DNA of 64,000 nucleotides from positions 99,574,001-99,638,000 of the forward strand of contig NC_086107.1 of NCBI RefSeq assembly GCF_963921235.1. The letters are read 5' to 3'. Below, in pieces: positions 7,056-59,548 of this stretch. Each line of letters opens with the position of its first letter. Position 1 is the first letter of the stretch. This DNA is from Mobula hypostoma. Its lineage: Eukaryota. A program made the translations under genes and the position numbers. The notes below the pieces were generated by a model, which was not told the origin of the DNA, did no database searches, and was given only the letters and a program-made list of their open reading frames with translations.

Positions 7056-7140
7056 GTAACACACACAAAATGCAGGAGGAACTCGGCATTTTGTGTGTGT
7101 TACTCGGATTTCCAGCATCTGCAGATTTTTTTTTTGTTTG
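7056..7140. mobile_element. Miniature Penelope-like inverted-repeat insertion
   Basis: Perfect 18-bp inverted arms (7056-7073 and 7086-7103) followed by the tail GGATTTCCAGCATCTGCAGATTTT that is shared with the larger PLE copies; no TSD seen. Confidence 0.7.
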
Positions 7141-9739
7141 GTTTCTAGTTTTGTTCCCATGCAGATCTAATTTCTTTCTCATTTCCCTCCTGGATATTCA
7201 TGAGGGTAATGTTCCCAATAAAGGCTCTATTTTCTAGAGTGGCTTTATTTTTTTCCAGAATAAAAATGGTTATCTTTTTTCCAGAAACATTTGTTTTTAA
7301 AAGTAATTCCTTTGAGATTGACCACTTTTGTATAAAAATTGAACATTTTCCATTCTGGGTTATCATTGTGTTGCTTTTTTTATCTGGGTGTATATGGCTT
7401 GTGTGTGTGTGTGTGTGCACGCATGTGTGTGTTTGGGGTACTCTATACTAACTAATTTAACATAGGTCACCTTATTTCTTGGAAGCATGCTTTTGTCATT
7501 TGGAAATTAATGACTATTTCCTTTAGTGAGCAGCCTTTAAATATTAAAGGGAATCACTTAAAGGAATGCAAAGCCACCCTTGCCCCTCTGATGCATACTT
7601 AGCAAAGTAAAGTTTCTTGAGATGCTGCACAAATGACGCATACAAGTTTTTAAAAATTAAATTCATCATTCAAATCCATTGGGTCATTAAGAATCACAGA
7701 GAGCTTAGTTAGAAACAAAATGCACAATTTTATGTTTTCCGCTTCATAAGAAGGCACAACAGCAACAAAGCTAGGAATTTGCCAAATAACTGATCACTCA
7801 GCCAATAAGAAATCAGAGCAGGGTAAAATCACTTCTGTAGTTCAGTTATCTTTGAAAAGGGATTGCTCCCATCAGATTGAGGGTTCTCCCTGGAAATTGT
7901 TTTGCAAGTGGGTGCTGCCTGTACCCACCATCAGTTTTGAGAGGTTGGGCTCAAAAGAATTCAAAGTGAGTGAATAACCACTTTAGTTAAAATGGGGAGA
8001 ACCCTGTTTGAATTATGTTCCAGAAAAATGCTATGTAATATATTTTAATGTCATTTACTCCCTGGCTTACCCAATGTTGCTAGTAAAATTGTAATTGAAC
8101 TCTACCCTGTTGAATTTTTTAAAATTGATAAATCTTAATAGTTAAATCACAATCCTCTGTCAAGTATTCTCGGCAATATGTTTTGGAGAATAACAATGTA
8201 TTATGGAGAAATCCAGCTTGTAACATTGCATTTTTTCACCACCAGGGGGACACCATTGCTTCTCCTTCCTCCAGTGCATTTTGGGTAGGATGACATCACT
8301 GTGGCTGACTTGTGCTCTGTGACTGTTGTGTATATTCCACAGAATGTTCACTCATTATATGAGAGCATTTCATTATGAAGTTACAAATAAAAATGCTTTA
8401 TAAGTTATATCCAGCAATCTCAGAAAGGGTACAACTTCTATTTGGTAGAACTATTACCAGGTTTTAGTGAGCTGTTTTGCCACCTTATCAGATACGTGCA
8501 TAAATAGATGTTATGTAACGAATATCATAGTCAAGGTGTTGTCTATGAAGTATGAATGTGTATGCGTGTCTGACTGCATGATCTGGGCAGGGAAAAAACT
8601 CAGTTCAGGCTGCTATTTGTAGCTAATTTTTTATCTTCAAATTGTGAACAAAGAAACATTCTAAACTTTTTTGTTGCATTTAATTCTTGTGATTTGTCAG
8701 GCTTTAGGTTAAGTGATAATATAGGAAGTAGGCTTCACAAAGGTGCCACCCCATACATGGGAGGTCCCTGGATACACAGAGTAAATATTTCCCCCAAGAA
8801 TTGAATTGTGCTTAAAAATAAAATCAACATTTTGGGTTTGAGTTGCATTTTGGAGACCTGCATGTAATCTAGCAGGGCACTTGAGGGAGAAACTGTTGGA
8901 AAACTTTAAGGTGCTCCTCCAGATCAGCATTAAATATGTCTAAACACACATGAAATCTCTTTTAGTGTTCTGACGAGCACCATTTTACTTGGATGTAGTT
9001 TGACTTCTGTGATAGTGACCAATGATATTTCATCGGGTAAAAGTGAAGATCTGCTTGGGTATAAAATTAAAACCCAATCACACTACAGACAACCTCAACT
9101 TGGCTCTAGCCCATGCATTAAATGTATGGATGCCCAATCCTAACACAGTCAAGTCCCACCAGCCTTGGGTCAGGTTGTCAGCATTTTAAAAGATTGAATC
9201 TTGGCACATATATTTATCAATAGCTGATCTGACCAAGTTCAAGTTTATTTGGTTTTTTTTAGGGTTTTAGATAAGGGAAAATAAAAGAAAGGGAGACATT
9301 AAAATGAAAGTCAACAGTTACAAGTTTGAAGAGACTAAGCCCAAGTGAAAAAATTGAAATATGTGGAATTGCAAAAAGAATGAATCTTTTGAGGGAAGAG
9401 ATTTTATTAAAATGTTTTCTGTGGCCATACTGTATTACATTATTTAACATTTCTGATGTTCGTATAACATGATTGACATACCAAACAAATGTTTGCGACC
9501 TGATGGTGCTAGAGATTTATTGCTGCTGCCTAATGGTGAGGTACTTATTTTTAAATAACAGGAAATTATTTTTTGATTATAGGTGTTTAGCATTTACTAT
9601 AGTTTGTTTGTTCCCATGCTGTGTCTAATTTTATGATGATTGACAAAGTGCAAAGAAGTAATTGATCAGAATACAAGGTAAATGTTCAGAACATGTAAAT
9701 AATGCAACATAAGGTTTAAGATGCTGATTGATAATAATC

Positions 9740-11067: not shown

Positions 11068-11244
11068 GAGGTTTATCGGAATTCCATGCCGGCCTCCAGC
11101 TTTCAACAACAGAAATTACGAGTTTGTGAAGTGTGCTCAGCATACTTGGGTCTTCACGATAATGATCGGCGCCTTGCAGACCACTTTGGTGGGAAACTTC
11201 ACCTTGGATTCATTGAAATTAGAGAGAAATTAGAAGAGTTACAG
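11068..11244 (+). CDS. LUC7L2: LUC7L2 coding exon (177 nt) with the second zinc finger (EVYRNSMPASSFQQQKLRVCEVCSAYLGLHDNDRRLADHFGGKLHLGFIEIREKLEELQ)
   Basis: ttttcgtAG acceptor and GTAAGA donor; CxxC...H...H motif of LUC7 ZnF2; IEIREKLEEL is the LUC7L2-type sequence. Confidence 0.96.
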
Positions 11245-14629: not shown

Positions 14630-15270
14630 ATCATTTTCATGTCATGAAATCGGTTGTTTTGCAGCAGTAGTACAGTGCAATACTTTAAAAATTTAAGTTA
14701 CAATAAATATTTTTTTTAAAATAGTGCAAAAAGGAGCAAATGATGAGATACTGTTCATGAATTCATGAACTGTTCAAAATCTGGTGACGGAGAGGAAGAA
14801 GCCTCTGCCACCTAAGATTCTGCGTGTTTGTCTTCAGGCTCCTGTTTTCCTTCTTTGATAGTAGTAATGAGAGGAGGGCATGTCCCAGATGGCATGGTTC
14901 ATTAGTGATGGATACCAATCTTCTTGCGGCATTGTTTTTTGCATATGTCTTTGATAATGCTAGTGCTATTGATGGATCTGGCTGAGTTTACAACCCTCTG
15001 CAGATTTTCTGATCCATTAATGCATTAATACCTCCATACCAGACGGTGATGCAATCAGTTAGAATGCTCTTCATGGTACATCTGTAGACATTTGAATCTC
15101 CTCACACACCCAATGAATAAAAGTGCTAGCATACTTTCTTTGTAATTGCATCAACATGTTGGGCCCAGGATAGATCTTCAGAGATGTTGACAGCCAGGAA
15201 TTTAAAGCTGTTCACTTTTTCCTCTGCTAACCCCTTGATAAGGACTGGCATATTTTCATGCACCTTTCCA
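14630..15270 (-). mobile_element. Rex1/Babar LINE 3' fragment
   Basis: ORF 15126-15323 contains FKFLAVNISEDLSWAQHVDAITKK; the 3' UTR resembles that of the 5967 copy. Confidence 0.75.
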
Positions 15271-15665
15271 TTTACCTTAATTACTTCTTCTGAGGAGCCA
15301 TCACACTCCCATCCCAGCAACACCTCACCCTAACAATTCTCCTGTCATCTGCCTACACTGGAGGATAACTTGCAGTAACAAGTTAACTTATCTGCATGTC
15401 TTTTTCGGATGAGGCAGGAAATTGAATGATTGGGATGACCACACTATCACAGGATGATCGTACAAAGTCCATGGAATAGATGCCCAAAGTAAAAATCAAA
15501 ACTGTTCATGGTACTCTGCAGCAACAGTACTACTTGCTCCGTCTCCCTTGTATTAATAGAGATAAGCAATGTGTAATGTTGCATTAGGGTTTCTAATAAC
15601 AAGCAACACACATCAAAGTTGCTGGTGAACGCAGCAGGCCAAGCAGCATCTATAGGAAGAGGCGC

Positions 15666-15701
15666 AGTCGACGTTTCAGGCCGAGACCCTTCGTCAGGAC
15701 T
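15666..15701 (-). ncRNA. Minimal type I hammerhead ribozyme motif (inverted arm of the PLE)
   Basis: On -: AGTC-CTGACGA-A-GGGT(CTCG)GCCT-GAAA-CGTC-GACT. Activity not shown. Confidence 0.75.
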
Positions 15702-17203
15702 AACTGAAGGAAGAGTGAGTAAGGGATTTGAAAGCTGGAGGGGGAGGGGGAGATGCAAAATGATAGGAGAAGACAGGAGGGGGAGGGATAGAGCCGAGAG
15801 CTGGACAGGTGATAGGCAAAAGGGGATACGAGAGGATCATGGGACAGGAGGTCCGGGAAGAAAGATGGGGGGGGGGGGTGACCCAGAGGATGGGCAAGAG
15901 GTATACAAGAGGTATATTCAGAGGGACAGAGGGAGAAAAAGGAGATTGAGAGAAAGAATGTGTGCATAAAAATGAGTGACAGATGGGGTACGAGGGGGAG
16001 GTGGGGCCTAGCGGAAGTTAGAGAAGTCAATGTTCATGCCATCAGGTTGGAGGCTACCCAGACGGAATATAAGGTGTTGTTCCTCCAACCTGAGTGTGGC
16101 TTCATCTTTACAGTACAGGAGGCCGTGGATAGACATGTCAGAATGGGAATGGGATGTGGAATTAAAATGTGTGGCCACTGGGAGATCCTGCTTTCTCTGG
16201 CAGACAGAGCGTAGATGTTCAGCAAAGCGGTCTCCCAGTCTGCGTCGGGTCTCACCAATATATAAAAGGCCACATCGGGAGCACCAGACGCAGTATATCA
16301 CCCCAGTCGACTCACAGGTGAAGTGATGCCTCACCTGGAAGGACTGTTTGGGGCCCTGAATGGTGGTAAGGGAGGAAGTGTAAGGGCATGTGTAGCACTT
16401 GTTCCGCTTACACGGATAAGTGCCAGGAGGGAGATCAGTGGGGAGGGATGGGGGGGACGAATGGACAAGGGAGTTGTGTAGGGAGCGATCCCCGCGGAAT
16501 GCAGAGGGGGGGGGAGGGAAAGATGTGCTTAGTGGTGGGATCCCGTTGGAGGTGGCGGAAGTTACGGAGAATAATATGTTGGACCCGGAGGCTGGTGGGG
16601 TGGTAGGTGAGGACCAGGGGAACCCTATTCCTAGTGGGGTGGTGGGAGGATGGAGTGAGAGCAGATGTACGTGAAATGGGGGAGATGCGTTTAAGAGCAG
16701 AGTTGATAGTGGAGGAAGGGAAGCCCCTTTCTTTAAAAAATGAAGACATCTCCCTCGTCCTAGAATGAAAACCCTCATCCTGAGAGCAGATGCGGCGGAG
16801 ATGGAGGAATTGCGAGAAGGGGATGGCGTTTTTGCAAGAGACAGGGTGAGAAGAGGAATAGTCCAGATAGCTGTGAGAGTCAGTAGGCTTATAGTAGACA
16901 TCAGTGGATAAGCTGTCTCCAGAGACAGAGACAGAAAGATCTAGAAAGGGGAGGGAGGTGTCGGAAATGGACCAGGTAAACTTGAGGGCAGGGTGAAAGT
17001 TGGAGGCAAAGTTAATAAAGTCAACGAGTTCTGCATGCGTGCAGGAAGCAGCGCCAATGCAGTCGTCGATGTAGCGAAGGAAAAGTGGGGGACAGATACC
17101 AGAATAGGCACGGAACATAGATTGTTCCACAAACCCAACAAAAAGGCAGGCATAGCTAGGACCCATACGGGTGCCCATAGCTACACCTTTAGTTTGGAGG
17201 AAA

Positions 17204-19194
17204 CCCTCCTCTTCTTTATGGACACCCCGCTCTGGTCTTCTGCCTGCTCTGGATCTCTTTATTGCCAACTGCCGACGGGACATCAACTGTCTCGACTTCA
17301 CCGCACCTTGTCCCCATTCCAACCTCACTCCTTCGGAACGCTCTGCTCTCCACTCCCTCCGCACTAATCCTAACATTATTATTAAACCCGCTGATAAAGG
17401 GGGTGCTGTTGTAGTCTGGCGTACTGACCTCTACCTTGCCGAGGCACAGCGACAACTCGCGGATACCTCCTCTTATTTACCCCTCGATCGTGACCCCACT
17501 AAGGAGCACCAGGCCATTGTCTCCCACACTATCAACGACTTTATCCGCTCAGGGGATCTCCCATCCACTGCTACCAACCTTATAGTTCCCACACCCTGCA
17601 CTTCCCGTTTCTACCTCCTACCCAAGATCCACAAACCTGCCTGTCCTGGCCGACCTTTTGTCTCAGCTTGCTCCTGCCCCACCGAACTCGTTTCTGCATA
17701 CCTCGACACTGTTTTATCACCCCTTGTTCAATCCCTTCCGACCTATGTTCGTGACACTTCTCACGCTCTTAAACTTTTCGAAGATTTTAAGTTCCCTGGC
17801 CCCCACCGCTTTATTTTCACCATGGATGTCCAGTCCTTATATACTTCCATCCCCCATCAGGAAGGTCTCAAAGCTCTACGCTTCTTTTTGGATTCCAGAC
17901 CTAATCAGTTCCCCTCTACCACCACTCTGCTCCGTCTAGCGGAATTAGTCCTTACTCTTAATAATTTCTCCTTTTGCTCCTCCCATTTCCTCCAAACTAA
18001 AGGTGTAGCTATGGGCACCCGTATGGGTCCTAGCTATGCCTGCCTTTTTGTTGGGTTTGTGGAACAATCTATGTTCCGTGCCTATTCTGGTATCTGTCCC
18101 CCACTTTTCCTTCGCTACATCGACGACTGCATTGGCGCTGCTTCCTGCACACATGCAGAACTCGTTGACTTTATTAACTTTGCCTCCAACTTTCACCCTG
18201 CCCTCAAGTTTACCTGGTCCATTTCCGACACCTCCCTCCCCTTTCTAGATCTATCTGTCTCTGTCTCTGGAGACAGCTTATCCACTGATGTCTACTATAA
18301 GCCTACTGACTCTCACAGCTATCTGGACTATTCCTCTTCTCACCCTATCTCTTGCAAAAACGCCATCCCCTTCTCGCAATTCCTCCGTCTCCGCCGCATC
18401 TGCTCTCAGGATGAGGGTTTTCATTCTAGGACGAGGGAGATGTCTTCATTTTTTAAAGAAAGGGGCTTCCCTTCCTCCACTATCAACTCTGCTCTTAAAC
18501 GCATCTCCCCCATTTCATGTACATCTGCTCTCACTCCATCCTCCCACCACCCCACTAGGAATAGGGTTCCCCTGGTCCTCACCTACCACCCCACCAGCCT
18601 CCGGGTCCAACATATTATTCTCCGTAACTTCCGCCACCTCCAACGGGATCCCACCACTAAGCACATCTTTCCCTCCCCCCCCTCTGCATTCCGCGGGGAT
18701 CGCTCCCTACACAACTCCCTTGTCCATTCGTCCCCCCCATCCCTCCCCACTGATCTCCCTCCTGGCACTTATCCGTGTAAGCGGAACAAGTGCTACACAT
18801 GCCCTTACACTTCCTCCCTTACACTTCCTCCCTTACCACCATTCAGGGCCCCAAACAGTCCTTCCAGGTGAGGCATCACTTCACCTGTGAGTCGACTGGG
18901 GTGATATACTGCGTCTGGTGCTCCCGATGTGGCCTTTTATATATTGGTGAGACCCGACGCAGACTGGGAGACCGCTTTGCTGAACATCTACGCTCTGTCT
19001 GCCAGAGAAAGCAGGATCTCCCAGTGGCCACACATTTTAATTCCACATCCCATTCCCATTCTGACATGTCTATCCACGGCCTCCTGTACTGTAAAGATGA
19101 AGCCACACTCAGGTTGGAGGAACAACACCTTATATTCCGTCTGGGTAGCCTCCAACCTGATGGCATGAACATTGACTTCTCTAACTTCCGCTAG
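17204..19194 (+). pseudogene. PLE polyprotein (reverse transcriptase + GIY-YIG endonuclease), 5'-truncated, one frameshift
   Basis: IIKPADKG motif, GVAMG, RYIDD catalytic motif, Cx4Cx2C linker (CKRNKCYTC), VIYCVWCSRCGLLYIGET endonuclease with two downstream His; a 14-bp duplication at ~18802-18829 shifts the frame. Confidence 0.9.
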
Positions 19195-19500
19195 GCCCCA
19201 CCTCCCCCTCGTACCCCATCTGTCACTCATTTTTATGCACACATTCTTTCTCTCAATCTCCTTTTTCTCCCTCTGTCCCTCTGAATATACCTCTTGTATA
19301 CCTCTTGCCCATCCTCTGGGTCACCCCCCCCCCCCGTCTTTCTTCCCGGACCTCCTGTCCCATGATCCTCTCGTATTCCCTTTTGCCTATCACCTGTCCA
19401 GCTCTCGGCTCTATCCCTCCCCCTCCTGTCTTCTCCTATCATTTTGCATCTCCCCCTCCCCCTCCAGCTTTCAAATCCCTTACTCACTCTTCCTTCAGTT

Positions 19501-19536
19501 AGTCCTGACGAAGGGTCTCGGCCTGAAACGTCGACT
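19501..19536 (+). ncRNA. Minimal type I hammerhead ribozyme motif in the PLE 3' repeat
   Basis: CTGACGA at 19505-19511, GAAA at 19525-19528, GUC triplet at 19530-19532; stem I AGTC/GACT; loopless palindromic stem III (ACGT). Activity not shown. Confidence 0.78.
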
Positions 19537-20295
19537 GCGCCTCTTCCTATAGATGCTGCTTGGCCTGCTGCGTTCACCAGCAACTTTGATGTGTGTTGCT
19601 TGAATTTCCAGCATCTGCAGAATTCCTGTTGTTAGGGTTTCTAATATCTGGAGAGCTTTGAGGGAACCGTGCAAAAAAAGACTCTTAAGTATTGAGAAAA
19701 TAAATGTACAAAAGGCTGCTGTTCCATTGTCTTAGGAGTGCAAAAGCACAAGCTGGTTGAAGATTAATTTAAAAATTATGTTTATTTAAAAAAATCTCTT
19801 GGACTTTCATAAAGTGTTTATCTGAACTTGCTGAGATTTAACAAAATTTGCAGTCATCACAGAACAAAGTTCAGTTAGCTGTATGTGACCATAGATTAAG
19901 CAAATAGATGTCATTTAAATTTTATGCAGAGAAATGCTAAGTAAATCCATGATAAAGAAAAGAACACAAAATGGTGGGATGGGAATTTATCCTTGATCAC
20001 ATGCAGAATAGCAATGAATGTTTGTTGAATTCAGATTATGAATATCAATGCTATATCTTTCAATGATTGCTTGAGAATAACAAAAACTATGTTTTTTGCC
20101 TTTTGATCAGGTTATATTTTCTGTTCATATACTTTTAAATGAAGTGCTTGAATTTTCCAACCATTTGACTTATTCAGGAAAGGTTTATTCCTGTTATAGT
20201 GGCTATGTACTTTGCCATATTCTCCAGAGATCTCTTTGATTTAAAGCTCTAATTTATTATGTACCTTATTGAAATGCTGACTTTTTAATGTACAG

Positions 20296-20384
20296 AAACT
20301 TGTTGCTGAGAAACAGGAAAAAAGGACACAAGAGCGACTGAAAAGAAGGGAGGAGAGAGAAAAGGAGGAACGAATGAAAAGAAG
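20296..20384 (+). CDS. LUC7L2: LUC7L2 coding exon (89 nt, KLVAEKQEKRTQERLKRREEREKEERMKR)
   Basis: tgtacAG acceptor and GTTGGT donor, phase 0/2; RE-rich segment matching LUC7L2. Confidence 0.92.
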
Positions 20385-21734
20385 GTTGGTTACCGTTTAA
20401 CACTTAAAGACTTGACCAACACCAGCGATAATTATTTCTGTGGGAAAAAAAATCATTTCTTCAGTTTGCTCCATGCCTTTAGGGATCTTTGACTTTGTTT
20501 ATCCTTTTTTCTTATCTTTGATCCTGATTTTGTTATTTTCTATTTCTCCTGTCTGATCCTAATGTTCCAGTACCATTATGTTCTTCCTTCCTCAAATTGT
20601 ATTCTTTTAATGTTCATTAATTTCCTGTTGTAATAGATCTTGACCCTGAAGACATTCTTCTCAATCTTGTCACCCTACTTAAATCTTGTATTCCAACATT
20701 ACTTGATTTTCTTTTGCTTGCAATCTCCATTCCTTTGGTTATCAAAGTAAGTCTGGATTCTTGGAAAAGCAAATCGTTTGACAATTAATATTCTTTCAAG
20801 AGGCAGCTAAAAAAGGGGAAGCATCTCTCTCATCTATCAGACAGGGTGCTTACTAGCAGCACTTAATCAGATTTCACACAGGAAAGTTGGTAGCATTCAA
20901 AATCTGTAGAAATGGAGGTAATCTTTTTACATCTTGGTATTTGCCTGAAGGCAGAAGGAAATTTGATGTGGGTTGGTGATCAAGTGATATCTGGATAGGA
21001 ATGGTCAATGTATTTTTCTTGTGGCGTAGCAAGTGGTAATTCTAAAGACCTACACATTACTTAGATAGTAAAGTGATGTTTCTAGGTTTGCAAGTGACAC
21101 AAAATTAGAAGGCAATGTATACTGTGTAATTTCAAGGAAGAAGTAATAAAAGCATAAATGATCATGTGTGTGGCTCAAAGTGGGGAAAAATGGAGGAGGT
21201 CTGTGTTGATCCACTGTGGATCCAAGAAGACACATGGAAAATGTTTGGAATTCAATTATCAGTAATGAGATAAGGGGCTTTTGTCATCCATGTGAATGAA
21301 CTGAGCATCAGCAGTTGCCAATACATACAAATGCAGTAGAGCTTGAATAAGTCTCCAGGCAACTGAAATATCAATTTTCAGTTTTGTATTCAAATCCCCT
21401 TGTGATAAAGACCTTTTGATTTATTTGGCTTCTAAATATTTGTGTTTTATTCAAAAGCCGAACTTGAGTTTCAAAACAAAAAATAATATAGGGAAATAAA
21501 CTTTACCCAGCAGTGTCTTACAGCTGTTAAGATGTGTGGCCAGGCTCTCTCTTAATTGTATGTAGTACATTAGCTCTGAGATTAAATGTTCAGAGGGTAT
21601 CAGGGTGAATTCATAGTTGCTTGAAAGCCTTTGTTTCTCTGAGAATACAAAGGAGCCTCGGCTTCATGTCAGAATTGAAAGATGAAGTTTGACCTGGCAG
21701 TAATTTTAGACCAAATCCAAGGCAAAACGTCACA

Positions 21735-22985
21735 AGAACTGGTACTTCTAAGAATTTTGATGACAAGAACTAAAAGTAAGATACAAGCTGAAATAGGTAA
21801 AGAACAATGTGGTTTTGTCAAAGACAGAGGTACAAGACACACGATATTGATGTTAAGGATACTATCAGAACAAGCTATTCAAGTGCAAAAAGATTTGTTT
21901 ATTTGTTTTATCAACTACACAAAAGCATTTGATGAAGTAAAGCATAATAAGTTATTTGAAATATTACAGGAAACTCTAGATCTAGATTCGAAAGACCTCC
22001 GCCTAATCAGAAATCTGTACTAGGATCAAGCTGCCGCTGTAAGAATAGATGGAGAAGTGGGTCAGTTTACGAAAATCGAGAGGCATTCGACAAGGGTGTG
22101 TTTTCTCCCCGATTTGTTTAATGTGTACAGTGAAACAATATTACAAAAAAGAAGAGACATCTTGGGAATCAAAGTTGGTGGTGAAAATATCAATAATTTC
22201 AGATATGCAGATGACACTGTTAATTGCAAGTACAGAGGAAGAACTACAAAACTTAATTGATATAGTTGTTGAAGAAAGTGCAAAAATGGGTCTATCAATT
22301 GTAAAAGGACAGAATATACGGTGATATCCAGAAAGAAGGAGAATCCTATCTGCTGGCTGAGAATAAACGGGGAAGACATAAAACAAGTACAGAACTTTTG
22401 CTACTTAGGAAGCTGGGTGACATCAGAAGGCAGGTGCAATATGGACATCAAAAGAAGAATAGGGATGGCAAAAGACACCTTTACGAGAATGAAGAATATA
22501 CTGACCAACACTAAACTAGGCATGACAACCTGCCTCAGAGCACTGAAATGTTACGTTTATCCAGTTACGTTATATGGCTCAGAATGTTGGGCAATAGCTA
22601 GTAACATGACGAAACGAATTGAAGCAACAGAGATGTGGTTTTTGAGGAGGATGCAAAGAATATCATGGATGAAATGAATATCTAACGAGGAAGTCATGAA
22701 CAGAGCAAGCACAAAAAGAGAAATAATGTATGAGATCATGAAAAGGCAACCTGACTTCATTGGACATGTGATTAGGACAGAGGAGTTAGAATGCACGGTA
22801 ATTATGGGAAAGATTGAAGGGAAGAAAGCAAGAGGAAGACAGACAAATGATGATGGAGACAGCAGCCAGAGAACTGGAAACGAATACCAGTGAATTGATC
22901 CACTTGACCCGAAACAGGAGTGTGTGGGCCATGGCAATCAAAGCTCAGACTGGGCACGGCCCCTGATGATGATGATGATGACGAC
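21735..22985 (+). mobile_element. RTE-clade LINE, 5'-truncated and disrupted
   Basis: EQCGF...ICFINYTKAFD.V, RQGC, RYADD, FCYLGS and LYGSECW motifs spread over frameshifted ORFs; (GAT)n 3' tail at ~22964-22985. Confidence 0.88.
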
Positions 22986-23342
22986 AACAGGTGCTACATA
23001 TAGTGTTAACAATAAAGTTATGTTGCTTAATCCATCAATGACTTTTATTCTTTTTACCCTTATTATTGGTGAAAGTCTTGAAATAATTGCATTTTAAGCC
23101 CTATCTCTGATGGTACCAATTTGCGATTCGATACTTTTATAATTTCTTCCTCTAAATTACACAGTTGCCGGCTTTATTATTGCTGATTAACCACCAATAA
23201 TTTTCTATGGTATTAGCGTTTGATAAAATCAGTATAAAAGATAGCAAGTATGTTGAGCCTTGAATCACTGTATTACATTAGAATTGTAGATGTAGCAATG
23301 AGATTCATTATCTTCTGTGTTACTCTTTTCTTGATATTTCAG

Positions 23343-23372
23343 GACCCGGTCTCGCAGCAGGGATCGCAGGAG
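23343..23372 (+). CDS. LUC7L2: LUC7L2 30-nt microexon (TRSRSRDRR)
   Basis: tttcAG acceptor, GTATGT donor, phase 2/2; keeps the frame between the 20296 and 27722 exons; CpG-rich RS codons in AT-rich surroundings. Confidence 0.85.
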
Positions 23373-24216
23373 GTATGTTTTCTTTTTTGGTTCCTCACTG
23401 GTGTGGCTACATCAACTATTTGAAGCTGGGGAATGAAGAGAAAATTATACTTGGATTTAAGAAGTAATATTGGGATATTCCAAAGTTATGTACCGATAAT
23501 GAAGTACAAGAGTCTACAAATATTACCTTCATTCCTGCACACATTAGCAATAAAAACACAATCTAGTCTAGTTTACCAGGTGAAGTTATCAATCTTCAGC
23601 ATCCAACAAAAGATCACATTCTTAATCTCACTCTAAAGGTCTCTGCTCTTCAGATGTTATTCAGTAGTTATACAGTCCTTATCAGGTGAGTTCAGTCATT
23701 CAAACCTGGTCATTACAATCTTACTTCAGATATCCTTAGTGAGATATTTACATTACAATTGAAACCATGAAATAGTACAAATTAACGTCTGAATCAATAT
23801 TTAAATGTGTTTCATCCAAGTTGGATGTACATTAAAGCCCAGCATCTGAATATCTGGAACAAATTAAGTGTTTACAAACACCTTCAGCCAAAGTGGTCAG
23901 TCTTGCTCTGTTGCCTCTTGTGGTATTCTTCACAGTGGCTAATTTCTAGGCAGATTGGTTTATAAGCAAATAAGGCTAAGTACATTTGGTATGACAGTGG
24001 ACTGTAAAAGCTGAAAGATTATCAAAAGAAACATCAATTCAAAATTGAAATATTCACAAACATTGTGCTCAAAGGAATTTGGTCCATTGTGCCATTCACT
24101 GTGATCATGGCTGATATACACCAAGCCTCAACTCTTTCTGAGGGTTATGCGGAACTGGCACAACTCCCCAACCTTTCAAAGTTGTATTTCCTATTTAAAT
24201 ATCTCTGGTTATTTAG

Positions 24217-24800
24217 ACAGTAGGTGCAGGAGTAGGCCATTCAGCCCTTCGAGCCAGCACCACCATTCACTGTGATTGTGGCTGATCATCCACAATCAGC
24301 ACCCTTTTCCTGCCTTCTCCCCATATCCCTTCACTCCGCTATCTTTAAGAGCTCTACCTAACTCTTTTTTGAAAGAATCCAGAGAATTGGCCTCCACTGC
24401 CTTCTGAGGCAGAGCATTCCACAGAACCACAACCCTCTATGTGAAAAAGTTTTTCCTCAACTCCGTTCTAAATTGTCTACTCCTTATTCTTAAACTGTGG
24501 CCTCTGGTTCTGGACTCCCCCAACATCGGGAACATGTTTCCTGCCTCTAGCGTGTCCAATCCCTTAATAATCTTATATGTTTCAATCAGATCCCCTCTCA
24601 TCCTTCTAAATTCTAGTGTATACAACCCCAGTCACTCCAATCTTTCAACATATGACAGAGCCGCCATCCCGGGAATTGACCTACGCTGCACTCCCTCGAT
24701 AGCTAGAATGTCCTTCCTCAAATTTGGAGACCAAAACTGTACACAGTACTCCAGGTGTAGTCTCACCAGGGCCCTGTACAACTGCAGAAGGACCTATTTG
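24217..24800 (-). mobile_element. CR1-type LINE 3' end
   Basis: ORF 24437-24625 (YTLEFRRMRGDLIETYKI...TRGHSL...RKNFFT) is the CR1 ORF2 C-terminus. Confidence 0.88.
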
Positions 24801-24979
24801 CCACTCTTCAAGAAGAAATTCCTATGTGGTTTTAAACTGTGATCTCCTTATTATGCAACTGTAATTATTTGAACTTCTACCTAGGTTCTGAATCAGATTT
24901 ATTATTTCTGGAGTGCCCTAAAAATTGTGGCTTTTGCAGCTGTGGTACAGTGCAAAGATGTAAAAATATAATTTATGAA

Positions 24980-25486
24980 AGTTCTGGTCACCTCACTATA
25001 GGAAGGATGTGGAAGCATTGGAAAGGGTATAGAGGAGATTTACCAGGATGCTGCCTGGTTTAGAGAGAATGCATTATGATCAGAGATTAAGGGAGCTAGG
25101 GCTTTACTCTTTGGAGAGGAGGAGGATGAGAGGAGACATGATAGAGGTATACAAGATATTAAGAGGAATAGATAGAGTGGACAGCCAGCACCTCTTCCCC
25201 AGGGCACCACTGCTCAATACAAGAGGACATGGCATTAAGGTAAGGGGTGGGAAGTTCAAGGGGGATATTAGAGGAAGGTTTTTTACTCAGAGTGGTTGGG
25301 TGTGTGGAATGCACTGCCTGAGTCAGTGGAGGAGGCAGATACACTAGTGAAATTTAAGAGACTACCAGACAGGTATATGGAGGAATTTAAGGTGGGGGGT
25401 TATATGGGAGAAGGCAGGTTTTAAGGGTCGGCACAACATTGTGGGCTGAAGGGCCTTTACTGTGCTGTACGATTCTATGTTCTATG
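24980..25486 (+). mobile_element. CR1-type LINE 3' end nested in a - strand Rex1 fragment (~24888-25790)
   Basis: LGLYSLERRRMRGDMIEVYKI...TRGH...FFTQ; TTCTATGTTCTATG tail; Rex1 3' sequence is present on both sides. Confidence 0.85.
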
Positions 25487-27454
25487 TAAAAATAAATAAT
25501 GGTCAGGTGATGTTCATGAATCATTCAGAAACCTGATGGCGGAGTGGGGGAAGAAGCTGACACTGAATTGTTGAGCATGGGTCTTCAGGCTCCTGATGGT
25601 ACTAACAAGTAGAGGGCATGCCCCAGGTGGCAAGAGTCCTTAGTGTTGGGTGCCATCTTTTTGAGGCACCATCTCTTGAAGTGTCCTCGTTGATGGGGAA
25701 GATTGGCTAAGTCTGTAACCCTCTGCAGCCTCTTGCAATCCTGTGATGTGGAGCCTCCATACCAGACTGTGATAGTCCTGTGTTTCATAAAGTTTGCCCA
25801 TATTCATCTAGACTCCAAAGAATACAAATCAAAGTTTTAGTCATTCATTATAAGAGAACCCTCTCAGCCCAAGAACTGTGCTTCCTCCAATGCTAGTGTA
25901 ACCTTTCTTAAATAATGAGAACAAAATTGTATGCAGTAGTCTAGATGTGGCCTCACCAGCACTTACAGTTGTAATAATACTTAAGCTTCAGCTCCCTTCA
26001 GTAAAGATAATGTACCATTTGCTTAACTACTTGTTAACTTTGTTTTTCATACCTAGAAGGCTTAGATTTTGCTATGCTAAGTCTCTATATTCTGTTGCAG
26101 AGTCCGTATAGCCTCTTCATAATGGCCCCTGAACTTGAGTACATTGCAACTGATCCCTCCTCCGTTAATGTAGATGGTAAATAATTAAGGGTCAAGAACT
26201 GGTACTTGTTACAAGATCTTTGTAATATTCCACTAGTCCTTCCAACTCTACACAATAACTGATGAATCCATGTCACCACATCAATACTCTGAATTCTTAT
26301 GTTGTGGCTCAGCCTTCAGTGAAGTACATTATCAAATTTCTTGTGAAAATTGAAATACATTACATCTGCAGATCTTATCAACTCTGCTGGCCATGGTCTT
26401 GATCAAAAGCAAATTCATAAATATTTTTCTTTTATAAAACCACGTTTAATTGGTTTGATTGCATTTAGCTTCTCTAAATGAATAGATATTTCTCCCTCAA
26501 TTAGTCTCTAGCACTTGATCAACAGTAGCTGTCAAATTCCTTGGTTTTTGTCTCCCTCTATCCTTGAATGAGCAAATTACATTTTGCAATTGTGTTACAT
26601 TCCCAAACCAAAGTGAATTTTGAAAAGCTTCAACCAGTGACTCTATCTGTAGTCCCTTTTCTGTTAAGGTTCTTGGATCAGGTCTTTGCAACTTGTCTGT
26701 CTGTTCCATTAGCAATAGGATGTTGTTTCTTCCATGCTATTTCAAGCTCGCCCACCTATTATTTTTGGACTATTTGCAATTTCTTCTACTTGAAAACTGA
26801 TTTAAATGATCTCCCATTTCCTTGTTACCTATCATTAATTCCACAGTCTCACCCACTTGCCTGATTTTCCTTCCTGTATCCTTAAAAGCTCTTTCTACTT
26901 GTTTTGGATATTACTGCCACCTTTATCTGATACTATTTTTTTTTACTGATTTTATTAGTACTAACGGCTTTTTAGTCTCCCACTGCTAGTTCTTGGAAGA
27001 ATTCATAATCTTCTGGCTTTCCACCAGCTTAGCTACTTTGTATGCTTTTAATTTAATATCTGTGATTGAATATTTTTCTTAACTTGCATTGTTACCCACA
27101 GTGGTTCATCTTTCTTATTGAGTCACTTTTTTTCTAATTGGGATAATTTTTTCTGGGGGTATGCTGCTTGAAAATCTGTCACTGCTCATCTACTGACTCT
27201 TAGCTTATTTACACAGTCCACTCAGGCATCTTGTCCCTCATACCTTCAGTTTTATTTAAGTTCAGGATACTGTTTATGGTTCCATGTAGTTTGCCCTTAG
27301 ACTGTATCTTCAATTCCCTGGAGAGCTCTGGTGTTACTGCATTTTAATACTGAATATCAGGGATGAGGGTAGACAGTTTACATCTATACTTGGCAATAAA
27401 GAGTTGAGATCAATGGGGAACAGATCATACGTTATATATTGTGTCTATATTTGA

Positions 27455-27668
27455 CCAGTCAGGGTTGTTGGCCCTGAGCTGAACCCCCCGAACCTGGAGG
27501 ACTGGTGGACCACTCTTAGTCTGACCTCTACCCTTTGAACTGTTTGGCATGGGTGACCTTACCAAGAATCAAAGCATAAGGCCCTGACTCCAGCCAATGT
27601 AACTCTCTGGGTCATTGAGGCACGCAAGTCTCCAACCCTATGACAAGGTTGTGGTCCTCTTGGAGTCG
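27455..27668 (-). mobile_element. Probable RTE-related 5' UTR-like fragment
   Basis: On - it reads ACCTTGTC...GCGTGCCTCAATGACCC...CCCATGCCAAAC...CAGACTAAGAG, resembling RTE 5' regions as I recall them; no ORF. Confidence 0.45.
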
Positions 27669-27721
27669 TAGAGAGATGGATGACTGATAAATAATTGTAG
27701 AAAACAAAATTATTTCTACAG

Positions 27722-27928
27722 ATCAAGATCAAGGGAGCGTCGTCGACATAGATCCAGGTCTGCATCCCATGACCGACGCAAACGTTCCCGCTCCAGATCT
27801 CGGGATCGGCGTCGTCGACGCAGGTCTCGTTCTAGAAGTAGAAGCAGAAGCCGTAGTCACCACCGCAGCAGACATAGCTCCAAGGACAGAGAGAGAGATC
27901 GGAGTAGAGAAAAAAGCTCTAAAAGGAA
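27722..27928 (+). CDS. LUC7L2: LUC7L2 RS-domain exon (207 nt)
   Basis: ttctacAG acceptor, GTAAGT donor, phase 2/2; encodes SRSRERRRHRSRSASHDRRKRSRSRSRD...SKR. Confidence 0.93.
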
Positions 27929-28904
27929 GTAAGTTTGTGCTTCGCTATTGCATTGTCCGTATGACTGACATATATCAGCATAACACTCTTGTTCAGACTT
28001 GTGATATAAGGTGGAAGCAGTCCCACTGGTCCCACTCCCCTCTCACTACCCTGTACCACTACAAGTTGTTTTCTCCCACATGCCCAATAACTGCACTTTG
28101 ATTATTTTGTCACTGTCACACTACAGGACAACTCACAATAGCCAACTGAAGTACCAGTACATCTTTGGGAAAGGAAAGAAACACGAACATTTAGAACCCC
28201 CTTTGATCATGGGAGAATATGCAAACTACACAGACTGGTCTTTAGAGCTGTGAGGCAGCACCATGAAATATGTGGTTGCAATTAAATATCCAGAGCTGAA
28301 ACTTTTTTTGCTCTTCATTAAAATAGCACTTTAACCATGGTAATGTCAATTCTGCAAAAATATAGTCTCATTTAAAAGACCTTTGGTTTGACCAGCCTTC
28401 CTTCAAAACTATTTCTAATTACTTCTTTGTAACTTGTAGGACTGCGTAGGTAATTCAAGTATTAATCTACATAGAAGAATTAAAATTTCTCATAACTTCA
28501 TGTTGTTACATATTTCTTAGAGATTTTTTTTCATTCCTCCTGATACTTGTTTTCTGAAATGGATTGCTCTCATGTTTAGTTTTCTGGCAATCACTGCTGG
28601 TACTATTATTCAGGTGCTCAGTTAGGTTGCCTCTTTATTTTCCTTTACTGCTTAATGAGACTGCACAATCTACATGATACATGGCTTCATTTGCCAAGGC
28701 ACAGAATATGAGCGTAGGAAGGTCTTAATACAACTGTATAATACATTGATGTTTTGGTTGCTACACTGTAGGAAAGATGTGACAGCATTGCAGAGGGTGC
28801 AGTAACGATTCATCAGTATATTGCTTGGGTTGAGAAACTAGGCTGAGTTTTCTTTGGAGCAGGGAAGATTGAGTTGGATTCCAGAATGCACTGTCCAAAT
28901 GTCC

Positions 28905-33725: not shown

Positions 33726-34939
33726 TAATGTTAGAGACGGGCGACATATCACTGACATGTCATGAAATTTGCTTTGCAGCAGCAGTACAGTGCAAAACAT
33801 AAAAATTATAAATTATAAGTTAGAAAATAATTAGTGCAAATGACAAGTACCAATATTATTATCTTTTAAGTATTCTTAGAAAACTTCACAAGCCATTAAC
33901 TGCATAGCTCCTTCAAGCTGAAAAACAATGAGTCTTCTAAGATTGTAAGTCACTTTCATATTGTTCTGATTTCCCCACAGGAATATGTTGCTTATGTAAA
34001 ATTGGCTCCTTTTCCCACCATGGGTTGTAGAGGTTTAGTTGTCAAGTACATGATACAGTCATAGTCTTGCTATGTTAATGATAAATTTTCTGCTTGATGC
34101 TCTAAACTGACAAAACATTGTTAACCTATGCGTATTTATGCAGGCGCTGCTGCTATTTAGGCCACTATCTTAACTTGAACTATTGTTACTGCAACAACAT
34201 GTGTACTTCCTCTCCATGGATGCTGTTTTCCAGGTGACTGCAGAGTGCACCTATTATGAAATCAGTGCTGTGCATCTGTGATGCTGTGGTCTGCATAAAT
34301 TGATGTCTTTATTCTGGATCAAAGGGCATTTGATTATTGGTTGAAAACATTTTGAGTGTTTGAACTGGGCAACAAGGAATAGAATATTGACTGAAGCAAA
34401 TTCAGACAGTAACATCAGCATCCTGGTTACTGAGGCAGTATGTCTTGTACACCAATGGTACCCCGGGTGTCACTTTATATTACCTGAGGTGGAACTGGGA
34501 AGAAGTTGCCAGAAAAGACACCAAAGACCTCCAATCAATTCCAGCAGAATTCCACTCCCTTATTTGTTTGGTTAAAGTTAATAATTTGACCTCTTTTAAA
34601 AGCCCAGCAAACATGGGTAACGTTGCATTACTCCCCTTCACTCACACAGTTGGCTAGTTGGTAGTCACACAGCCAGCTAGTTAAGTACAGCAGTCACATT
34701 TTATAATGCAATCATACACTTAGTGCATCCTCACCAATGTGGTACTCTCAATTCATCCATATAGCTGACACAGTGTCTCAGGACTATGAAAATCTTCATG
34801 AAGAGTTATGACTTGAAGCATCAGCAGTTCCTTTCCTCCCACATATGTTGCCTAACTCACTGAGTTCCCTTAAGCAGATTGTTCATCCTAACAGCTATTT
34901 CATTATGGCAGCCATTTTCTATCAACACATTGATATTAT

Positions 34940-35120
34940 AAACAGAAAATCTGCAGATGCTGGAAATCCAAAGCAACACACACAAAAAGCTGGAGGAACT
35001 CAGCAGGCTGGGCAGCATCTATGGAAAAGATGAAGGGTCTCAGCCTGAAACATTGATGGTTTACTCTTTTCCATAGATGCTGCCTGGCCTGCTGAGTTCC
35101 TCCAGCACTTTATGTGTTTT
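34940..35120 (-). mobile_element. Miniature Penelope-like inverted-repeat insertion (181 bp)
   Basis: 13-bp TSD ACATTGATATTAT (34927-34939 and 35121-35133); inverted arms; tail on the left only; partial hammerhead core (GATGAAGGGTCTCAGCCTGAAAC). Confidence 0.85.
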
Positions 35121-35199
35121 ACATTGATATTATTCTCCCCTAACCTTTGACATCCTTACTAATCAAGAACCAGTCAATGTCCACTTTAAATATACTTGA

Positions 35200-40935: not shown

Positions 40936-41293
40936 CCCAAGTTCTTATTGTCAACTCTTGAAAATTAAACGGACTTGCAAAAGAAGATTGCACAGTTGTA
41001 TTTTTCTTGGACCAAATACAGCTGAAATGACTGAATTGCAGCACAGGTCCATTCTTTGGCATTATATCATTGCAAAGATGAATTACTCAATATTATGCTG
41101 TCCAGTTGCAGTAGAGTTTCACAAGAAAAACAGTAAGCAAATCCACGTAAGCATATAACATGGAAATGTTTCTGAGCATATTTACCCTTTCCGGTAAACA
41201 ACAGGAATTCTGTAGATGCTGGAAATTCAAGCAACACGCATAAAAGTTGCTGGTGAATGCAGCAGGCCAGGCAGCATCTCTAGGAAGAGGTGC

Positions 41294-41329
41294 AGTCGAT
41301 GTTTCAGGCCGACACCCTTCGTCAGGACT
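41294..41329 (-). ncRNA. Hammerhead motif with mutated stem III
   Basis: On -: AGTC-CTGACGA-AGGGTGTCGGCCT-GAAA-CATC-GACT; the ACGT palindrome is changed to ACAT. Confidence 0.55.
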
Positions 41330-42243
41330 AACTGAAGGAAGAGTGAGTAAGGGATTTGAAAGTTGGAGGGGGAGGGGGAGATCCAAAATGATAGGAGAAG
41401 ACAGGAGGGGGAGGGATGGAGGAGAAGACAGGAGGGGGAGGGATGGAGCCAAGAGCTGGACAGGTGATAGGCAAAAGGGATAGGAGAGGATCATGGCACA
41501 GGAGGTCTGGGAAGAAAGACAAGGAGGTGGGGGGGGGACCCAGAGGATGGGCAAGGGGTATATTCAGAGGGACAGAGGGAGAAAAAGGAAAAAGGAGAGT
41601 GAGAGAAAGAATGTGTGTATAAAAATAAGTAACAGATGGGGTACGAGGGGGAGGTGGGGCATTAGCGTCCGGTGCTCCCGATGTGGCCTTTTATATATTG
41701 GCGAGACCCGATGCAGACTGGGAGACCACTTTGCTGAACATCTACGCTCTGTCCGCCAGAGAAAGCAGGATCTCCCAGTGGCCACACATTTTAATTCCAT
41801 ATCCCATTCCCATTCTGACATGTCTATCCACGGCCTCCTCTACTGTAAAGATGAAGCCACACTCAGGTTGGAGGAACAACACCTTATATTCCGTCTGGGT
41901 AGCCTCCAACCTGATGGCATGAACATCGACTTCTCTAATTTCTGCTAATGCCCCATCTCCCCCTCGTACCTCATCTGTTACTTATTTTTATACACACATT
42001 CTTTCTCTCACTCTCCTTTTTCCTTTTTCTCCCTCTGTCCCTCTGAATATACCCCTTGCCCATCCTCTGGGTCCCCCCCCTTGTTTTTCTTCCCAGACCT
42101 CCTGTCCCGTGATCCCCTCGTATCCCTTTTGCCTATCACCTGTCCAGCTCTTGGCTCCATCCCTCCCCCTCCTGTCTTCTATCATTTTGGATCTCCCCCT
42201 CCCCCTCCAACTTTCAAATCCCTTACTCACTCTTCCTTCAGTT

Positions 42244-42279
42244 AGTCCTGACGAAGGGTCTCGGCCCGAAACGTCGACT
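42244..42279 (+). ncRNA. Minimal type I hammerhead ribozyme motif (best-preserved copy)
   Basis: AGTC-CTGACGA-A-GGGT(CTCG)GCCC-GAAA-CGTC-GACT; predicted cut after C42275. Confidence 0.8.
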
Positions 42280-42909
42280 GCACCTCTTCCTATAGATGCT
42301 GCCTGGCCTGCTGCGTTCACCAGCAACTTTGATGTGTGTTGCCCTTTCTGGTGACAGCTTTCTTCTCCACTTTCCCCATGAAGTTTTTTTTTGTCCTTGC
42401 AATGACCAGCATTCTATTCAGTCGTTAAACTGGATTTAATTTACAGAAAGAATGAGCCTGAGCATAAGAGAGAACTTCTAATTTTTGCTCCCATTGCTTG
42501 TTTACCCACTCTTTTTGAAGGAAGAAAGTGAAAGGCATTCCATATATAAAAGGAAGTTCTGCTTATTGATATTGTAAACATGTGACTGTACTTATTTATA
42601 AAGTTGTTTATTTTTAAGGTCATGGACAATATTAAATTTATTTATAAAGAGCTGTCCCTGTCGGCCCTCAGCCTGAACATCTACAGTATTTAACTCCAAT
42701 CTAACTCTGACATATGTGGACTGGTCTTGTTAGGCTCAGGGAATGAAGCCAGGGTCTATTACTGTACAAGAATCTGTCTACCTCAGGCTATGAAGTATGT
42801 GGTGACTCAATCTCTGAGCCTCTCTAGTGTAAAGAATTCAAGAGATTTATGACCAACAGAGAGAAGAAATTTCTCCTCATCTCCATTTTTAGTCATAGAC
42901 CCCTTAGAT

Positions 42910-58775: not shown

Positions 58776-59548
58776 CATGTTGGGAGGGAAGGGTCAGATT
58801 GACCTTTTGGAGTAGGTTAAAAGGACAGCACAACATCGTGGGCCGAAGGGCCCTGCGCTGTTCAATGTCCTTTGCTCTGTGTGTGTGTGTGAAAGGCCTT
58901 CTCCTGGTTCACACCTCGGTGCGTCCCTCAGCCTGGAACGTGTCGGTCAGCGGCGTCCCCTTTACAGACATCCCCCGGTGCTGGGATCTCGTACAGACAT
59001 CCCCCTGTGCTGGGATCTCGTCAGCTTGCGGGAAGGCCAAAGGCCGTCTTTCACCAAGCTGATACTTTCCAGCAGCACTTGATGTCTGTCTCGCTGTAAA
59101 GCCCAAACCCCGGGAGTCCTCTGTCACACAACTGCAGGGGATAGACCTGGACAGGGACCAGCGCCTCCTTTCTTGGTAAGTGCACTGTCCACTGTCTCCT
59201 CCTTCTAGAGGGATAATATTTCCTGAGCTGTGGGTCTCTGGAGACACCTGGACGTCACTGTGACACATTCCGCGCACCCGAAGCCCCCGGTGCGGGAGAG
59301 GCCGGGCCGTTTAAGCCCCTGTCTCGCAGGACCGGAGCTCAGCACCCCCACTCCAGCGCCGGTGCGGCAAACTGTGGAGGGCAGCGGGGAAGTAACGCCG
59401 TGCAGAACGGGAGGGGCAGCACCGCAAAGCAGCGCAGCTCGAGTGCAAACCGCAAGGATCGCAGGGCTGAGAGAGGTCGGAGGCGAAGGAACACCGACAC
59501 CCAGGAATGCATCAGGGAGGGAGCGCAACAGTAAGGCAGGGGGAGCAA

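Follow-up and report, generated by a model that had tools for sequence, protein, structure and literature searches.

In endonuclease-bearing (EN+) Penelope-like elements (PLEs), the published norm is an inverted 5′-truncated copy adjoining the 5′ end and a tail of 30–40 bp at one end (Craig et al. 2021, PMC8557442), and inverted ends within one TSD are described for rotifer PLE copies (Arkhipova et al. 2013, PMC3846280). In the portions of these two papers covered here, the RT is followed by a GIY-YIG endonuclease and a hammerhead motif lies near the 3′ end. For Poseidon of Anolis carolinensis, the covered part of an in vitro study (Frangieh et al. 2024, PMC11167929) describes a protein that cuts and extends both strands, with two reverse-transcription starts that bracket the tail; head-to-head products are not demonstrated in that part. 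A self-priming route has been proposed as an alternative source of such junctions (PMC3846280, part covered).

The insertion described here lies in an intron of LUC7L2 in a 64-kb stretch of ray DNA, all of which was analysed and is referred to as the window. It shares with the published EN+ PLEs the head-to-head 5′-truncated copies, the single TSD, the one-sided tail, and the RT, GIY-YIG endonuclease and hammerhead motif. It differs in its inverted copy, which is 1.6 kb long and reaches into the RT (inverted pLTRs of rotifer copies are given as about 180–220 bp in the part of PMC3846280 covered), in its tail, which at 29 nt is slightly below the quoted range, and in the absence of a direct upstream pLTR, which is due to truncation of the sense copy. 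Among the titles listed in a search for literature on Penelope in sharks and rays, none was on the topic. In L1 twin priming, both target strands prime reverse transcription and an inversion inside one TSD results; the second primer, however, binds at an internal site of one RNA, so that the 3′ part is not repeated in the inverted part and a long hairpin does not arise. The LUC7L2-intron insertion likewise has one TSD and, apparently, priming from both strands, but it contains the 3′ part twice.

Location and structure of the insertion

The host gene is LUC7L2, as the first-pass annotation had proposed, and it lies on the plus strand. The exon upstream of the insertion is 100 % identical to shark LUC7L2 proteins, and in tblastn searches two of these proteins aligned with consecutive residues at 11068–11244 and then from 20296 onward, with nothing at E<0.05 between the two exons. 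The host intron is 9051 nt long, and its next exon begins 650 nt past the TSD and 694 nt past the right arm. As this exon is 89 nt in length, skipping it would shift the frame. It is joined to the following exon by a GT..AG joint at a depth of 397 in run X9 (organism A), which is likely to be RNA because it contains two GT..AG joints; the joint shows use of the exon, not the rate of its skipping, in a sample that may or may not carry the insertion. Run X9 has no cover at 19717–20077 and later introns have a depth of 1–7, to which no evidential weight is attached. A listing of titles on LUC7L2 regulation included nothing on the host intron.

The insert consists of two 5′-truncated copies of an endonuclease-bearing PLE, arranged head to head with a tail on one end (Table 1). 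Reverse-complementary arms with 7 substitutions and 2 indels, a 782-bp spacer and one 15-bp TSD around a single insertion had been noted by eye, and all of these were recovered. In self-BLAST, the left arm (15600–17203) and the right arm (19602–17986) are 98.64 % identical over 1618 columns, with 7 mismatches and 2 gaps, and a global alignment returned the same 7 substitutions and placed the indels at about 18823–18836, where the right arm has a tandem duplication of 14 nt, and at about 16506, where a G run is one G longer in the left arm. The spacer is exactly 782 nt. The TSD sequence is found at two places only, on either strand of the 64-kb window, and these bracket the entire unit; the internal head-to-head junction has no TSD. 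An 11-nt duplication common to both arms is a private variant of this insertion. On the transcribed strand, the insert contains one AATAAA (17014) and two ATTAAA hexamers, which are candidate signals by sequence.

Table 1. Features of the LUC7L2-intron insertion, its flanking exons and the insertions used for comparison
Feature	Position in window	Strand	Evidence or remark
LUC7L2 exon upstream of host intron	11068–11244	+	Protein identity, tblastn
TSD, left copy, 15 bp	15584–15598		Present twice in window
Extra base between left TSD and left arm	15599		Single nucleotide, untemplated or a later change; left junction alignment
Left arm: inverted 5′-truncated copy (RT C-terminal half, linker, GIY-YIG, 3′ end), tail absent	15600–17203	-	Self-BLAST, alignment
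Minimal hammerhead motif, left arm, antisense to LUC7L2	15666–15701	-	Descriptor scan
Head-to-head junction (17203/17204): 5-bp inverted match, 4-nt loop	17196–17209		Seen in sequence
Spacer, 782 nt: RT N-terminal part of the longer copy, unreached by the inverted copy	17204–17985	+	
Right arm: 3′ portion of the longer copy, in sense orientation	17986–19602	+	Self-BLAST, alignment, motif location
C-x4-C-x2-C linker motif, Neptune/Nematis type	18776–18802	+	Motif location
PF01541 (GIY-YIG) match	18898–19191	+	E 1.5e-4, 22.5 bits (cut-off 22.6); motifs located
Minimal type I hammerhead motif, right arm, sense to pre-mRNA	19501–19536	+	Descriptor scan
Tail, 29 nt, right end only	19603–19631	+	Alignment
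TSD, right copy	19632–19646		Contig alignment of the relative (X5) begins exactly here
LUC7L2 exon downstream of host intron, 89 nt	20296–20384	+	tblastn; GT..AG joint in run X9
Short head-to-head insertion of related end sequence	34927–35133		13-bp TSD, one-sided tail; comparison only
Older head-to-head insertion of the same PLE family	41185–42352		Comparison only, outside the finding

Identity of the element

The Penelope-like identity proposed in the first-pass annotation was borne out by domains and motifs. An RT with DKG (17393) and SLYTSI (near 17819) in the spacer and YIDD (18116) in the right arm is followed by a C-terminal GIY-YIG endonuclease, in which a CCHH motif places two cysteines between GIY and YIG (motifs at 18898–19024). 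Matches to PF00078 (E 2.2e-5) and PF01541 were both narrowly below the Pfam cut-offs. There were 1679 relatives, the closest (83–94 %) from rays, and the sense copy begins at about residue 235–271 of relatives that are 889–930 aa in length. The inverted copy does include much of the RT and the whole endonuclease, as had been claimed: its RT portion is the C-terminal half, QTKGVAMG motif onward, and its GIY-YIG is complete. The C-x2-5-C-x2-C motif of the Neptune and Nematis clades is present in the RT–EN linker, at 18776; the Penelope/Poseidon clade lacks this motif and was ruled out. The label ‘Neptune-type’, as against Nematis, is provisional and has the linker motif as its sole basis.

The insertion is a dead copy, because the sense copy is 5′-truncated and both copies are frameshifted, the left arm by the one-base gain near 16506 and the right arm by the 14-nt duplication just upstream of the endonuclease. 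There is no direct pLTR upstream of an intact ORF, as there would be in an active copy; family membership is unaffected. A minimal hammerhead motif in the terminal repeat was found with our own descriptor, which identified four motifs in the window, all within the two insertions of this PLE family. Rfam gave no match at all, hammerheads included, in the 64-kb window at the gathering score, with two chance matches only (E about 2) over 19380–19660, and the monomer folds no better than shuffled sequences (z 0.18); both results are expected as the motif is dimer-dependent. A 32-nt piece of the 3′ end of the element matched no stretch of the metagenome contigs.

Other head-to-head insertions in the window

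Two further TSD-bounded head-to-head insertions were found in the 64 kb. The one at 41 kb has arms at about 41231–41666 and 41944–42341, its tail is on the inverted arm, and its 11-bp TSD has one mismatch. A palindromic piece with a tail-like end at about 7056–7135 was not counted as head-to-head, and no TSD of at least 6 bp was found for it. The head-to-head layout is thus not special, being both the published norm for EN+ PLEs and seen twice more in the window, and the LUC7L2-intron insertion is a real, long-armed but ordinary case of a known type of PLE insertion.

Common source, age and read support

Several variants that are rare in the family are common to both arms, and the arms therefore derive from one source. 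Of 669 columns compared with the second insertion of the family, the arms side with one another against it at 31 and differ from one another at one. In run X1, T makes up 961,086 of the 962,589 depth units at 19224, whereas both arms have C. CpG transitions make up four of the seven arm differences, with two per arm, where the CpG share is 5.7 % (binomial p 0.0004), and this decay marks both arms as real DNA.

At the right junction, an X1 contig spans 19611–21786 with no differences, though it enters the element by only 21 letters where the bar for bridging was 31, and the assembly itself may derive from the X1 sample. The read support is for this junction; neither the left nor the inversion junction is among the joints and loose ends listed, beyond which there are a further 975 joints and 5764 loose ends, and the hairpin as a whole is therefore not confirmed by reads. 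X1 looks homozygous for the insertion, because its contig crosses the TSD without a break and with the depth of single-copy sequence (17 versus 15–17). In organism B, which is about 1.1 % divergent, a contig of run X5 aligns from 19632, the first base of the TSD, and is preceded by 407 unlike letters whose length suggests the left flank. The site thus appears to be empty in this close relative, and the insertion seems to lack the presence at an orthologous site expected of a conserved splicing structure. No piece of run X10 (organism C) among those listed lies at the insertion site, and this run is uninformative for presence or absence. The insertion is young, and hence no conserved switch, as its right junction is in the reads of one organism, the relative is apparently empty, and the arm divergence (7/1603, 0.44 %) is below that between the window and X5 (65/5732, 1.13 %).

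Origin of the hairpin

Our preferred account (probability about 0.8) is that a Neptune-type PLE integrated once, recently and in the usual head-to-head form, and that the duplex came about as a by-product and affects LUC7L2 little or not at all. The element endonuclease would have made a staggered cut, 15 bp apart, and both free 3′ ends would have primed reverse transcription of the element RNA, starting in its 3′ region. If one start site included the tail, 2428 nt were copied from it, and from the other, 29 nt further in, 1604 nt. Both copies would have ended early and been joined at their 5′ ends, with the TSD produced by gap filling and the arms drifting slightly since, mostly at CpG sites. 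Cutting and extension of both strands by Poseidon, with starts bracketing the tail (PMC11167929, part covered), would yield exactly this layout; however, this model comes from work in vitro on a Poseidon-clade element, and thus from a different family, without the linker cysteine motif.

An assembly or fold-back chimera artefact is extremely unlikely to account for the inverted arm. Head-to-head structures are reported to trouble assemblies (PMC8557442, part covered) and the joints listed do not include the inversion junction, but 7 substitutions with the CpG-decay signature on both arms, together with 2 indels, speak against an artefact. The left arm also ends exactly 29 nt short of the element end, as the tail rule predicts, the whole unit lies within one TSD at whose first base the contig of the relative begins, and the layout recurs in the window. 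We give next to no credence to a pair of separate insertions or to an inverted duplication made afterwards by DNA repair. The arms are not identical, and the short inverted match at the turn would fit fold-back copying; against this, the TSD surrounds the unit and is missing from the internal junction, the arms share variants rare in the family, and one would not expect a duplication made by repair to end at the tail boundary, as happens here and, mirrored, at 41 kb.

The probable duplex and its possible effects

With both arms in one intron and on the transcribed strand, a long duplex is possible. LUC7L2 transcription through the arms would probably let the intron fold, and the sequence makes it likely that the pre-mRNA forms a 1.6-kb duplex, with a predicted energy of -3509.6 kcal/mol, a longest perfectly matched run of 498 bp and G-U pairing at 4 of the 7 substitutions. 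The proposal that every LUC7L2 pre-mRNA could contain the stem holds to this extent, but applies to carriers only, the relative being apparently empty. By analogy, ADAR editing of the stem, before the intron is spliced out and degraded, is plausible: in lizard and Xenopus tropicalis, Penelope repeats rank with the most heavily edited families (PMC5625713, PMC10636886). The arms share with these repeats, and with Alu pairs inverted within one intron (Lev-Maor et al. 2008, PMC2533698), a same-intron inverted arrangement in which pairing and editing are possible. In contrast to Alu pairs, both arms here come from one event and are 98.6 % alike. Mismatch counts in X9 (A>G 13, T>C 12, C>T 10, G>A 9) resemble those in the DNA run X1 (11, 15, 9 and 10); both sets come from contigs, in which paralogous copies swamp the arms and the 14,732 to 246,334 records per run are mostly other repeat copies.

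A measurable change in LUC7L2 output in carriers, by slow intron removal, skipping of the 89-nt exon or nuclear hold of edited RNA, is quite improbable. The predicted duplex strength and the frame shift that exon loss would cause speak for it, as does the finding that inverted Alus in one intron can render a downstream exon alternative (PMC2533698), the stem greatly exceeding an Alu pair in length (about 280 nt for the Alus). However, an 800-nt insert between the Alus and the exon restored constitutive splicing and skipping returned only below 68 nt (PMC2533698), about a tenth of the distance here. The stem contains neither splice site and neither exon, and X1 looks homozygous. A splicing effect is considered unlikely because the stem is 650–694 nt from the next exon and this exon is spliced into RNA in the sample of organism A. 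The case for an effect on the exon ~660 nt downstream, suggested in the first-pass annotation, is weakened by the Alu precedent.

The locus is very unlikely to be an important supplier of Dicer-made siRNAs that silence the family in trans. In Drosophila, long inverted-repeat Penelope copies similarly have inverted body sequence able to form dsRNA, and Penelope siRNAs of transgenic Drosophila melanogaster matched the inverted regions of rearranged copies (PMC3681739, part covered), whereas the ray insertion is known from sequence. The arms do include sequence from the RT and endonuclease of a highly abundant family, but this family has many such copies, with three head-to-head insertions in the window, and would not depend on any one locus. 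The duplex would also lie in an intron and in the nucleus, and in vertebrates most long duplexes undergo editing. Vertebrate somatic cells have a weak siRNA output.

Significance

The insertion is a clean, datable case of PLE insertion in which both target ends were apparently primed, with starts 29 nt apart, matching the anole element in vitro. A further point is that very long, near-perfect stems can occur in ray pre-mRNAs, here within an intron of a conserved gene and, in one animal, apparently on both chromosomes. Larger importance would follow only if carriers differ from non-carriers in LUC7L2 splicing, as the effects in the closest experimental precedent were confined to a distance of about 70 nt from the exon. 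That the stem, in one ray lineage and not in a close relative, changes LUC7L2 splicing or level from at least 650 nt away or supplies siRNAs against the family is improbable. If true, the filled and empty sites would be a natural experiment on the reach of a very long intronic stem, in the gene for a core splicing factor.

Anatomy and identity of the insert

Self-BLAST of the window aligned the left arm (15600-17203) with the reversed right arm (19602-17986) at 98.64 % identity; the alignment spans 1618 columns and contains 7 mismatches and 2 gaps. This result and a global alignment match exactly the hairpin arms, with about 7 substitutions and 2 indels, reported in the first-pass annotation. 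In the global alignment one gap is a 14-nt stretch duplicated in tandem in the right arm, and the other is a single additional G within a run of Gs in the left arm. The reported spacer of 782 nt and single bracketing TSD of 15 bp were both borne out. No further copies of this direct repeat are found elsewhere in the window. The tail is at the right end only, and is absent from the left arm.

The sense copy encodes a reverse transcriptase (RT) in which DKG and YIDD are present, together with a linker of the form C-x4-C-x2-C and a GIY-YIG domain of the CCHH pattern. The Pfam scores fall slightly below the cut-offs. The nearest relatives of the protein are from Mobula and Hypanus (83-94 %), which makes a ray the probable host. 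The first residue encoded by the sense copy corresponds to about position 235-271 in relatives of 889-930 residues; the copy is therefore 5'-truncated. The inverted copy begins at a QTKGVAMG motif and hence retains the RT's C-terminal half together with the entire endonuclease, in agreement with the earlier description of its content. Both copies contain a frameshift. Under the definitions in PMC8557442, the element is classified, on motifs rather than a tree, among the endonuclease-bearing Penelope-like elements, as Neptune or Nematis type, and the same definitions led us to reject the Penelope/Poseidon type.

Each arm includes one minimal hammerhead motif. A hammerhead was not detected in the insert by Rfam, and the motif folds no better than shuffled sequences. 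Both results are consistent with PMC4209133, where motifs of this kind are dimer-dependent and weakly active. The sense motif would be buried within the arm duplex. Two ray proteins (P0009 and P0074), which bear the names of the host genes chitinase domain-containing 1 and divergent protein kinase domain 1C, match the RT of the element over >300 residues; in these gene models, sequence of the element has been either exonised or annotated in error.

Features in and around the LUC7L2 insert (window coordinates)
Feature	Position	Details
TSD of insert	15584-15598, 19632-19646	15-bp direct repeat
Sense copy	17204-19631	
Tail	19603-19631	29 nt
Hammerhead motif, right arm	19501-19536	
Hammerhead motif, left arm	15666-15701	
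Second insertion, same family	41185-42352	Head-to-head like the insert; tail on inverted arm; 11-bp TSD with one mismatch
Third insertion, short, related end sequence	34927-35133	Head-to-head; 13-bp TSD; one-sided tail
Tiny palindrome with the same kind of end, then tail-like piece	7056-7135	Within another LUC7L2 intron
Exon matching shark LUC7L2 isoforms	8246-8284	39 nt; AG and GT ends
LUC7L2 exon	23343-23372	30 nt; spliced at both sides in run X9
Stretches skipped by organism C contig	24210-24795, 24975-25505	
Tandem array	59516-59871	29-30 nt unit
Tandem array	61345-64000	20-nt unit; at least 2.6 kb; extends past window end

Host gene

Shark proteins named LUC7-like 2 match the exon at 11068-11244 with 100 % identity, and most of the 120 database matches listed for it bear this name. 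Two shark LUC7-like 2 proteins align collinearly with the + strand: adjacent residues fall at 11244 and 20296, and the interval between these positions gives no match at E<0.05. The insert therefore lies within a single LUC7L2 intron of 9051 nt, 4340 nt from the upstream exon. The 13 residues of the 39-nt exon match shark LUC7L2 isoforms; it is possibly a cassette exon conserved in cartilaginous fishes.

Read evidence

Contigs of 4 of the 24 runs listed were aligned to 17190-28000, a stretch that excludes the left arm. X1 is a run from organism A and may be the assembly's own sample. A single X1 contig spans 19611-21786 with 0 differences at a depth of 17, compared with 15-17 in other long unique contigs. 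This contig reaches 21 letters into the tail and also contains the TSD and flank, an exact match though below the 31-letter bridging threshold. Since the contig is not interrupted at the TSD, an empty allele is probably absent from X1. Neither the inversion junction nor the left junction is among the joints and loose ends listed, leaving the hairpin itself without read confirmation. However, an artefact is disfavoured because CpG transitions, which account for 4 of the 7 arm differences (p 0.0004), occur on both arms, two on each, and because the left arm ends at the tail boundary. The insert itself is real and well described.

Probable empty site and age

In X5, the run from a relative (organism B), a 2549-nt contig begins to align at 19632, where the TSD starts, and continues to 21772; its other 407 letters do not resemble the stretch. 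Counting 407 back from the left TSD leads to 15177. This position borders the next repeat of the left flank (match 15093-15176) and is so the expected place for the contig to end. From its start and the length of the unlike portion, we read this contig as the empty site in organism B. None of the pieces listed for organism C (run X10) is at the insertion site. Between the arms, 7 of 1603 sites differ (0.44 %), a smaller share than the 65 of 5732 (1.13 %) that separate the window from X5 in 7 of the 8 pieces listed, one low-depth second allele being left out (Fisher p 0.01). This fits an insertion that postdates the split of the two lineages.

Elsewhere in the gene, a contig of X9, an RNA-like run from organism A, has 19 differences from the window at 23373-23960, some common to organisms B and C, and the other X9 intronic contigs listed have 0; it represents either a divergent haplotype or mixed material. 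One organism C contig aligns in three pieces, and the two stretches it skips suggest further repeat insertions in LUC7L2 introns without a counterpart in organism C.

Layout and formation

The head-to-head layout is the norm for this Penelope-like family. PMC8557442 describes, as typical of these elements, an inverted and 5'-truncated copy next to the 5' end, with a tail of 30-40 bp on one side. Rotifer copies in PMC3846280 likewise have inverted ends within a single TSD, and two more insertions of this form are in the window (see table). The second insertion is older, with 14 substitutions in approximately 400 columns between its arms. No TSD was found around the tiny palindrome. What stands out in the insert is the length of its arms and its youth.

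At 31 of 669 columns the two arms are alike and unlike the second insertion; they differ from each other at 1. They have an 11-nt duplication in common, and both have C at 19224, where T makes up 99.8 % of the family depth in X1. These shared variants indicate one source lineage for both arms, and the one TSD indicates one event. PMC11167929 shows that both strands are cut and extended by the Poseidon protein of the anole, which starts reverse transcription at two sites bracketing the tail. By analogy, both ends of a 15-bp staggered cut would have primed reverse transcription, once with the tail and once without, and joining of the two unfinished copies would then have produced the head-to-head layout. 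The junction could alternatively reflect self-priming, a route proposed for such copies in PMC3846280. By inspection, the turn between the copies has a 5-bp inverted match.

Consequences for the host transcript

Both arms are within the LUC7L2 pre-mRNA. Their duplex has a predicted energy of -3509.6 kcal/mol, and its longest perfect run is 498 bp. G-U pairing is retained at 4 of the 7 substitutions. Duplex formation and editing would probably occur as a by-product. Penelope repeats undergo massive editing in lizard, and hyper-editing is reported in elephant shark (PMC5625713); in Xenopus tropicalis, Penelope ranks with the most heavily edited families (PMC10636886). Given these cases, editing is a plausible, expected and already described outcome. 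For transgenic flies, siRNA from inverted Penelope copies is described in PMC3681739. Over the stretch, the X9 counts are 13 A>G, 12 T>C, 10 C>T and 9 G>A, resembling the DNA run X1, but these counts are from contigs, in which rare variants are dropped and the arms are swamped by other element copies.

The insert appears quite unlikely to affect LUC7L2 or the silencing of its family. According to PMC2533698, inverted Alus in one intron can turn the next exon alternative, and the stem here is far longer and more perfect than an Alu pair; the downstream exon is 89 nt, hence skipping would shift the frame. However, in the Alu case 24 nt separated the repeat from the exon, inserting 800 nt brought back constitutive inclusion and skipping returned only at <68 nt, whereas here the exon is 650 nt from the TSD and 694 nt from the arm, and the stem contains no splice sites. 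In X9, GT..AG joints connect the downstream exon to the next, and that exon to the following one, at a depth of 397, which records inclusion rather than its level, in an animal that may or may not carry the insert. The aligned stretch lies downstream of the upstream exon. The insert is a young, dead, long-armed case of the standard head-to-head Penelope-like insertion.
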